From assembly GCF_003334255.1 (NCBI RefSeq), contig NZ_QOWU01000261.1: a stretch of DNA of 337 bases. One strand, given 5' to 3'. The position numbers were made by a program, and so were the translations under genes. The DNA comes from Escherichia coli (GTDB lineage: Bacteria; Pseudomonadota; Gammaproteobacteria; Enterobacterales; Enterobacteriaceae). Positions 1-337 of the stretch are shown in pieces; position 1 is the stretch's first letter; every line of letters begins with the position of its first letter. The notes beneath the pieces were generated by a model. That model was not told the DNA's origin and made no database searches. It worked only from the letters and a program-made list of their open reading frames with translations.

Positions 1-185
1 TCAGCGACAGTCATCTGGTCATGTTCAAACCACGGTGGTTGTCCGTCATTGCCCCGCTGAAGTGTTAACGGGCATCCACAGGACACACAGCACAAAACGT
101 CCTGTCGGTTGTGCTTCGCAGCTTCTTTCGCCGTAACAAAATGGCCTTTGCTGTCATTCGCCATATAACAGTTCAGAATTCGCAT
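1..185 (-). CDS. Partial CDS (N-terminal 61 codons; 3' end lies beyond window position 1). Hypothetical Cys-rich protein, putative zinc-finger N-terminal domain, possibly CoiA-like. Translation: MRILNCYMANDSKGHFVTAKEAAKHNRQDVLCCVSCGCPLTLQRGNDGQPPWFEHDQMTVA...
   Basis: Seen in sequence: ATG at 185-183 (minus strand) sits 4 nt downstream of a perfect AGGAGG (complement of 190-195). The frame stays open for 61 codons to the window edge. Codons such as CTG, GCG, AAA, CCG and CAG are typical of enterobacterial genes (impression from memory, not computed). A CC-x2-C-x-C cluster lies at residues 32-38 (plus 72-92), followed by LxL-x2-G and a W-F-E-H-D motif at residues 52-56 (plus 18-32). Product assignment is inference from recalled family patterns. 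Confidence 0.75.
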   Translation of the reverse strand, partial: MRILNCYMANDSKGHFVTAKEAAKHNRQDVLCCVSCGCPLTLQRGNDGQPPWFEHDQMTVA

Positions 186-337
186 ATTTCCTCCTGAGTT
201 GTCCGGGGAATACTGAATCCTCCGGTCTGGCAGTGTGTGCAGTACTGCTCCCCATAATAATCGTGGTGACATTGTCTGCAGTGCCAGCTGGCTTTACGCA
301 CCACGGGTAAGGCATCCGGTACGAATTGCTGCAGACG
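173..337 (-). CDS. Partial CDS (C-terminal 54 codons plus stop; 5' end lies beyond window position 337). Hypothetical protein with a C-terminal C4 zinc-ribbon motif. Translation: ...RLQQFVPDALPVVRKASWHCRQCHHDYYGEQYCTHCQTGGFSIPRTTQEEICEF*
   Basis: Seen in sequence: the minus-strand frame beginning at 337 is open across the whole 3' part of the window and ends at TGA (complement of 173-175). Codon choice looks like genuine coding (CGT, CTG, CAG, CCG, GTG, AAA). It encodes CxxC-x9-CxxC (Cys codons at plus 278-280, 269-271, 239-241, 230-232) with flanking His residues. It overlaps the downstream start codon by 13 nt in a different frame. Confidence is reduced because no start codon is visible and the region could instead be a 5' leader. 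Confidence 0.55.
   Translation of the reverse strand, partial: RLQQFVPDALPVVRKASWHCRQCHHDYYGEQYCTHCQTGGFSIPRTTQEEICEF
190..195 (-). promoter_or_regulatory. Shine-Dalgarno / ribosome-binding site (AGGAGG) for the downstream CDS
   Basis: Seen in sequence: plus-strand cctcct at 190-195 is AGGAGG on the minus strand, a perfect anti-SD complement, followed by AAAT and then ATG. The 4-nt spacer is at the short end of the functional range. The site lies inside the coding sequence of the upstream ORF (codons Q-E-E). Confidence 0.6.

Follow-up and report, generated by a model that had tools for sequence, protein, structure and literature searches.

Does a 337-nt stretch of Escherichia coli DNA (the window) encode the end of a genuine zinc ribbon protein and, if so, what might this protein and the gene that follows it do? 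The original prediction, made from the letters alone, placed a CxxC-x9-CxxC ribbon with flanking histidines at positions 230-286, at the C-terminus of one open reading frame and immediately ahead of a second zinc-finger protein. Here we examine the motif, the family to which it belongs, the genomic islands that carry it and the roles that the gene pair could play there.

The ribbon motif and its coding context

The window is 100% identical to chromosomal island DNA of E. coli and matched 3759 of 5426 complete genomes of this species, with a median of two and a maximum of seven copies per matching genome, nearly all of them chromosomal. A blastn search of GenBank phages with the window returned no match, and an Rfam scan of the window found no RNA family. 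Locus L001, from E. coli ATCC 11775, contains the window at L001:12001-12337, where it covers the junction of two annotated genes, both encoded on its minus strand (Table 1). The upstream gene, which runs past the window edge at base 337, encodes WP_000270971.1, a 133-aa protein annotated as 'putative zinc ribbon protein', and the downstream gene encodes WP_001221615.1, a 144-aa 'zinc-ribbon domain-containing protein'. Read from base 337, the minus frame translates to RLQQFVPDALPVVRKASWHCRQCHHDYYGEQYCTHCQTGGFSIPRTTQEEICEF before its TGA stop, and a second minus frame begins with ATG and reads MRILNCYMANDSKGHFVTAKEAAKHNRQDVLCCVSCGCPLTLQRGNDGQPPWFEHDQMTVA... up to the window edge.

We found that the minus strand, which the original prediction had left unstated, encodes W-H-C-R-Q-C-H-H-D-Y-Y-G-E-Q-Y-C-T-H-C from position 286 down to 230, and the CxxC-x9-CxxC spacing was thus borne out. 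The 20-residue segment quoted at the outset is real, but the span given for it holds 19 residues (W to C), the final Q being encoded at 227-229, and the histidines in it number four rather than three. As a bare pattern, the motif is only moderately unlikely to arise by chance: when the window was shuffled 5000 times with dinucleotides preserved, 128 shuffles (2.6%) contained some CxxC-x5-20-CxxC within an open frame and seven (0.14%) had the exact x9 spacing. Since the pattern alone is not overwhelming in shuffles, the verdict on it rests on homologues.

The original prediction had held that the lack of a start codon in the extended sequence would count against translation of the upstream frame. 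The extended sequence contains an ATG with GAGG 9 nt 5' of it. In addition, the N-terminus M-Y-A-K-S-F is kept in homologues, the length and start of the reading frame are conserved, and comparison with a 79%-identical orthologue gave a dN/dS of 0.18 for the upstream gene. These properties indicate that the upstream frame is coding, translated and under purifying selection.

The second gene follows directly, as predicted. The 13-nt overlap between the two coding sequences reads ATGCGAATTCTGA, and together with the AGGAGG Shine-Dalgarno sequence inside the upstream gene it suggests translational coupling. The Shine-Dalgarno sequence is identical in locus L009, and the diverged pair of L015 retains an overlap, of 17 nt. 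An EcoRI site (GAATTC, window positions 173-178) lies inside the 13-nt overlap, and its biological meaning is not evident. A scan for promoters and terminators around the operon found sites no more numerous than in shuffled sequence.

BLASTP aligned the two proteins over their full length at 31% identity (E 8e-16), and we therefore regard the downstream gene as encoding a full-length tandem paralogue. In a neighbour-joining tree, a derived 'up-type' clade with the MYAKSF N-terminus, which includes WP_000270971.1, is set against a broad 'down-type' group with the N-terminus MRILKCY. All four loci that carry an up-type member (L001, L013, L014 and L015) also carry a down-type partner, whereas down-type members stand alone in L005, L008 and L017.

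Table 1. Positions of the genes, motifs and neighbouring elements discussed in the text. Coordinates without a locus prefix refer to the window.
Feature	Coordinates	Strand	Basis
Upstream gene, WP_000270971.1	L001:11764-12165		
Downstream gene, WP_001221615.1	L001:12153-12587		
Upstream gene, 3' part (residues 80-133 and TGA at 175-173)	173..337	-	Translation; 100% match to annotated CDS
Zn_ribbon_11 (PF11682), WP_000270971.1 residues 94-126	197..295	-	hmmscan, E 8.4e-9
CxxC-x9-CxxC core	230..280	-	Cys columns invariant in alignments A1 and A2
W codon	284-286	-	
Codons of C99, C102, C112 and C115	278-280, 269-271, 239-241, 230-232	-	
AGGAGG Shine-Dalgarno sequence of downstream gene, 4 nt before ATG, inside upstream CDS	190..195	-	Sequence reading
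ATG of downstream gene	185-183	-	
13-nt gene overlap (downstream start/upstream stop)	173..185	-	Sequence reading
Downstream gene, first 61 codons, within DUF7828	1..185	-	Translation; Pfam
Downstream protein sites C33, C36 and H55 (PWFEH motif)	87-89, 78-80, 21-23	-	
Protein of ~177-200 aa, L001	L001:8403-9005	-	Pairwise E
Protein of ~177-200 aa, L015	L015:2322-2921		Pairwise E
Protein of ~177-200 aa, L004	L004:7458-7991, L004:9537-10067		Pairwise E
Slot cargo: IS66 element (tnpA, tnpB, frameshifted tnpC), ~350 nt after ribbon pair	L001:12942-15111		
Slot cargo: SMC-like ATPase	L004:11447-14071		
Slot cargo: SMEK_N/CTD10 + MC6 + DUF2326	L005:9400-12320		
Slot cargo: HamA + DEAD helicase	L017:9423-12183		
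Slot cargo in K-12 CP4-57, after yfjJ: abpAB + rnlAB	L003:8352-14356		

Conservation and putative metal sites of the two-domain family

Both of the checks proposed with the original prediction, a profile search of the full upstream protein and a comparison of its cysteines among homologues, supported a C-terminal four-Cys zinc ribbon. In WP_000270971.1 the C-terminal segment matched positions 3-35 of the 37 in the Zn_ribbon_11 model (35.4 bits), and residues 2-87 matched the complete model of DUF7828 (PF25165; positions 1-87 of 87, E 2.6e-31). The same two domains were found in WP_001221615.1 (Pfam; DUF7828 E 9.3e-31, Zn_ribbon_11 E 1.7e-18), and PF11682 is also the precomputed assignment of protein cluster P0002, which is 98% identical to the upstream protein. 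All 30 of the diverse members that we compared have the DUF7828 plus Zn_ribbon_11 layout. A 238-aa protein, P0144, has an extra DUF7828-like copy (RWYCADCSCPLIL...AWFDH...C) at its N-terminus, before the usual two-domain protein.

A word-indexed search found 285 homologue clusters, and a profile run exhaustively against 1.84 billion representatives gave only 245 clusters with E <= 0.001. The named members are nearly all from Enterobacterales, including Escherichia, Salmonella, Citrobacter, Enterobacter, Klebsiella, Edwardsiella and Serratia. Judged from these searches, the DUF7828/Zn_ribbon_11 family is small, narrow and confined to Enterobacterales. It is near-absent from viral collections, being present at four loci among the 2.9 million contigs of IMG/VR. 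NCBIfam gave no family match, and PHROGs gave none for the upstream protein and, for the downstream protein, only matches at E 0.018 and 0.033 to families of unknown function.

We examined conservation in an alignment of 61 full-length relatives (A1; 57-98% identity, including the 30% paralogue) and in one of 30 diverse members (A2; 24-60% identity). The invariant columns of A1 are A18, C31, C34, P49, H53, C65, C99, C102, C112 and C115, and those of A2 are C31, C34, F51, H53, W97, C99, C102, C112 and C115, with C65, Y106, G108, K110, G118 and S121 nearly invariant. The four cysteines of the ribbon are thus invariant down to 24% identity, within a family motif of the form W-x-C-x2-C-x3-Y-x-G-x-K-x-C-x2-C-x-T-G-x-Y-S. 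Most of the sequences without the C-terminal cysteines are singleton, frameshifted or truncated variants that do not match PF11682 either.

By the conservation of its cysteines, the motif is judged not to be a chance pattern. A coincidence in a non-coding or mis-called frame is scarcely credible: a similar loose pattern does appear in 2.6% of shuffled windows, but it would have to be reconciled with cysteines held over 24-98% identity, a significant Pfam match, a conserved frame and the low dN/dS. On these comparisons the motif is almost certainly the C-terminal C4 ribbon (Zn_ribbon_11) of a 133-aa protein of two domains.

The original prediction had allowed the flanking histidines a part as ligands. 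Residues H103, H104 and H114 are freely variable, and distant homologues have H, F, Y, R or E at position 98. Because the flanking histidines are variable, the ribbon reads as a C4 site and the proposal of histidine ligands for it fails; we therefore rejected them.

A rubredoxin-like knuckle had also been suggested, under which the four cysteines would form an iron redox centre rather than a structural zinc site. Rubredoxins have the signature C-x2-C-G / C-P-x-C-G with a spacing of roughly 29 residues. The ribbon has four cysteines in two pairs, but these read CRQCH...CTHCQ, differing from rubredoxin in both signature and spacing; the rubredoxin HMM matched neither protein nor any of the 30 members, and redox partner genes are missing from the neighbourhood. 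We rejected rubredoxin identity and consider such a redox centre very improbable.

A second invariant set, C31, C34, H53 and C65, was found in the N-terminal domain, with the pattern CxxC...PWFEH...C; in the upstream protein this domain lies mostly outside the window (L001:11764-12024). This set is probably a second metal site. An AlphaFold2 model built from the 61-sequence alignment was of moderate quality (mean pLDDT 68, with blocks of the N-terminal domain at 71-83) and predicts beta-hairpins around both cysteine pairs.

Island setting and neighbouring cargo

In every locus long enough to judge (L001, L004, L005-7, L014, L015 and L017), AlpA and a YagK/YfjJ 'inovirus Gp2' gene precede the ribbon gene or genes and share their strand. 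Directly upstream of the ribbon gene of L008 is a gene for a short YagK-like protein. The Rep-like neighbour has Pfam matches to YagK_YfjJ_C and REP_ORF2-G2P and includes an H-Y-H motif. Coverage of the block formed by the Gp2 gene and two ribbon genes is 80% or more in 3237 of the 5426 E. coli genomes. The AlpA, Rep-like and ribbon genes are accompanied by a gene for a conserved protein of ~177-200 aa without a Pfam match (pairwise E 1e-16 to 1e-83), which in L004 is found directly before each of the two ribbon genes. The far side of the module carries a YeeP-like GTPase, DUF932, an antirestriction protein, RadC/JAB, DUF905 and an Ag43-type autotransporter.

In L001, 259 nt separate the first ribbon gene from the Gp2-like gene, and this gap contains an inverted repeat of 7 bp whose loop is T-rich, CACTGAC-TGTTTTTTAC-GTCAGTG (L001:11581-11604), and two 16-nt direct repeats close to it (L001:11618-11653). 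These repeats could be a candidate terminator, or a site for Rep or a regulator. Folded as single-stranded DNA, this intergenic region gave a z-score of -1.08 against shuffles, which is not significant.

Beyond the ribbon genes we found a variable slot, followed by a P4-type integrase where the contig extends to it (L005-7). Based on the contents of this slot (Table 1), the position after the ribbon genes, or after yfjJ in K-12, looks like a hotspot of differing defence-type cargo. Past the IS66 element in L001, the fec iron-dicitrate operon is found further on. An IS66 element (orf35-37) is similarly placed in the Shigella SRL pathogenicity island, which has the same arrangement and in which the gene beside the YfjJ-like orf39 was listed as having 'no similarity' (PMC6980539). 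In addition, int, alpA, RadC and a Gp2-like protein have been described as 'core element functions' of Pseudomonas islands that also carry defence cargo (PMC12595487). The shared gene order identifies the ribbon genes as part of the conserved backbone of P4-integrase/AlpA islands of the CP4-57 / SRL-PAI type.

The two ribbon genes directly adjoin a slot that holds different defence-type genes in each island, and they overlap one another, so that the pair might itself be cargo, as a two-gene anti-phage defence, anti-defence or toxin-antitoxin-like module at the edge of the hotspot. We consider this quite unlikely. The genes persist across wholly different cargo and are syntenic with AlpA and Rep, which is the behaviour of a backbone; their products are paralogues of the same fold, unlike a toxin/antitoxin pair, and an enzymatic domain is absent. 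A search of PADLOC-DB 2.0 gave no match for the upstream protein and a best match for the downstream protein that was not significant (PDC-S64, E 0.063).

In K-12, the CP4-6 (L002) and CP4-57 (L003) islands keep YagK/YfjJ, but the family HMM found no DUF7828/Zn_ribbon_11 gene in either, YfjM included. YagN, YkgV and YagM of K-12, considered as possible named homologues, were translated, showed no resemblance and were rejected. The absence from K-12 may explain why the family has neither a y-gene name nor a literature; our search of the literature on the DUF7828/Zn_ribbon_11 family found no relevant paper. Since the K-12 islands do without a ribbon gene, the protein appears dispensable, at least for the retention of a decayed island.

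Proposed role and comparison with known systems

The original prediction remarked that function is not deducible from the fragment, and this was fair; its suggestion of a nucleic-acid-binding or protein-interaction module is reasonable but tentative. We propose that each domain would hold one structural Zn2+ and that the two co-translated paralogues would act together, probably as a heteromer, as their paralogy and the gene overlap suggest. The pair would then assist the island Rep/AlpA excision and replication module as a small accessory that binds nucleic acid or protein, and would not be cargo. Such an accessory might act by binding DNA at the Rep target or close to it, or by modulating the activity of Rep or AlpA. 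We give this explanation as a whole, including the assignment of the paralogue pair to the Rep/AlpA module, a probability of roughly 0.5; the identity of the protein is near-certain, and the mechanistic part is weakly supported.

In favour of an accessory role, the order of AlpA, Rep-like and ribbon genes holds whatever the cargo, and the weak CoiA_N likeness of the N-terminal domain offers a link to DNA. On the other side, both proteins have a near-neutral pI (6.7-6.9), unlike a classic DNA binder, the genes border the cargo slot, the K-12 islands have no ribbon gene, and structure comparison found generic zinc ribbons but no informative neighbour for an AlphaFold2 model that is only moderately confident. 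A sequence-profile search of the PDB returned only eL43/L37ae ribbons at non-significant values (E 0.16-0.7), and Foldseek found nothing at E <= 0.001 among the viral structures of BFVD. Among the matches listed by Foldseek for AFDB50, all belonged to the family itself, under names such as 'Ybl85', 'DUF3279' and, without support, 'DNA-directed RNA polymerase beta subunit'.

The novelty of the sequence feature is low, since it is already catalogued: thousands of E. coli genomes have the protein annotated, and both domains are in Pfam. The Gp2/ribbon/ribbon block is carried by ~60% of complete E. coli genomes, often in several copies, on islands whose other genes encode adhesins (Ag43, for example), toxin-antitoxin pairs and systems of anti-phage defence. 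The replication, movement and regulation of islands of the CP4-57 / SRL-PAI type are poorly understood, and AlpA, the Rep-like protein, the ~190-aa protein and one or two ribbon proteins beside a cargo slot make a reasonable experimental target. A bolder reading is that the up-type and down-type proteins form a heteromeric zinc protein that is the obligatory partner of the HUH Rep-like YagK/YfjJ in widespread, defence-carrying islands of enterobacteria, for example by recognising or coating an intermediate of island replication or transfer, or by sensing a helper phage. We regard this as doubtful and offer it tentatively; if true, it would reveal a previously unrecognised module for the replication or movement of 'cryptic prophage-like' islands.

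With respect to known systems, the closest comparison is with the family that Pfam defines by Zn_ribbon_11 (formerly DUF3279) and DUF7828 and that UniProt calls 'Ybl85'; this is the proteins' own family, and they do not differ from it. Generic C4 zinc ribbons, such as those of eL43/L37ae, RPB12, the Pirh2 C-terminal domain and the MCM N-domain, gave non-significant scores and offer no wider homology. In UniProt and JGI, the names 'DNA-directed RNA polymerase, beta subunit/140 kD subunit' and 'ribosomal protein L37AE/L43A' are attached to many members of the family. They look like annotation errors, as the only support that we found for them is a non-significant likeness to generic ribbons.

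The N-terminal domain weakly matched CoiA_N (PF25164) in 7 of the 30 members at E <= 0.1 (hmmscan, best E 1.3e-3) and DUF7830 (PF25169) in 6 of the 30. It shares with these domains the arrangement CxxC ... aromatic-F-x-H ... C, a likeness that does not reach significance for any one sequence. CoiA acts in competence as a DNA-processing protein and has a PD-(D/E)XK nuclease core (PMC1189080). It differs from the ribbon proteins in having a nuclease domain of its own and in the absence of a C-terminal Zn_ribbon_11. No hmmscan match to the CoiA PD-(D/E)XK domain (PF06054) was found in either protein or in the 30 members, and membership of the CoiA family was rejected because the nuclease domain is missing.

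Ogr of phage P2 and Delta of P4, the latter a duplicated form, are small zinc proteins with four cysteines that occur in P2/P4-type elements. Their genetic setting is comparable to that of the ribbon genes, which are found with a P4-type integrase and AlpA, but the cysteine spacing is different and DUF7828 is an addition in the ribbon proteins. By analogy, the pair could be zinc-finger transcription factors that contact RNA polymerase and activate genes of the island or of a helper phage, instead of assisting Rep. We think this unlikely: Ogr_Delta (PF04606) matched neither protein at independent E values up to 10, nor any of the 30 members, and on this ground membership was rejected; phage late genes are missing from the vicinity, the scarcity in GenBank phages and IMG/VR reported above fits poorly with such a role, and the RNA polymerase names in UniProt give it no support.

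A last comparison is with gene V of the Ff inoviruses, which encodes a small ssDNA-binding protein just after the gene II-type rolling-circle Rep. The gene V protein is an OB-fold without zinc and has no similarity to the ribbon proteins in sequence or fold. The analogy is purely positional and lies in gene order, gene V coming after a gene II-type Rep gene and the ribbon genes after a Gp2-family Rep-like gene.
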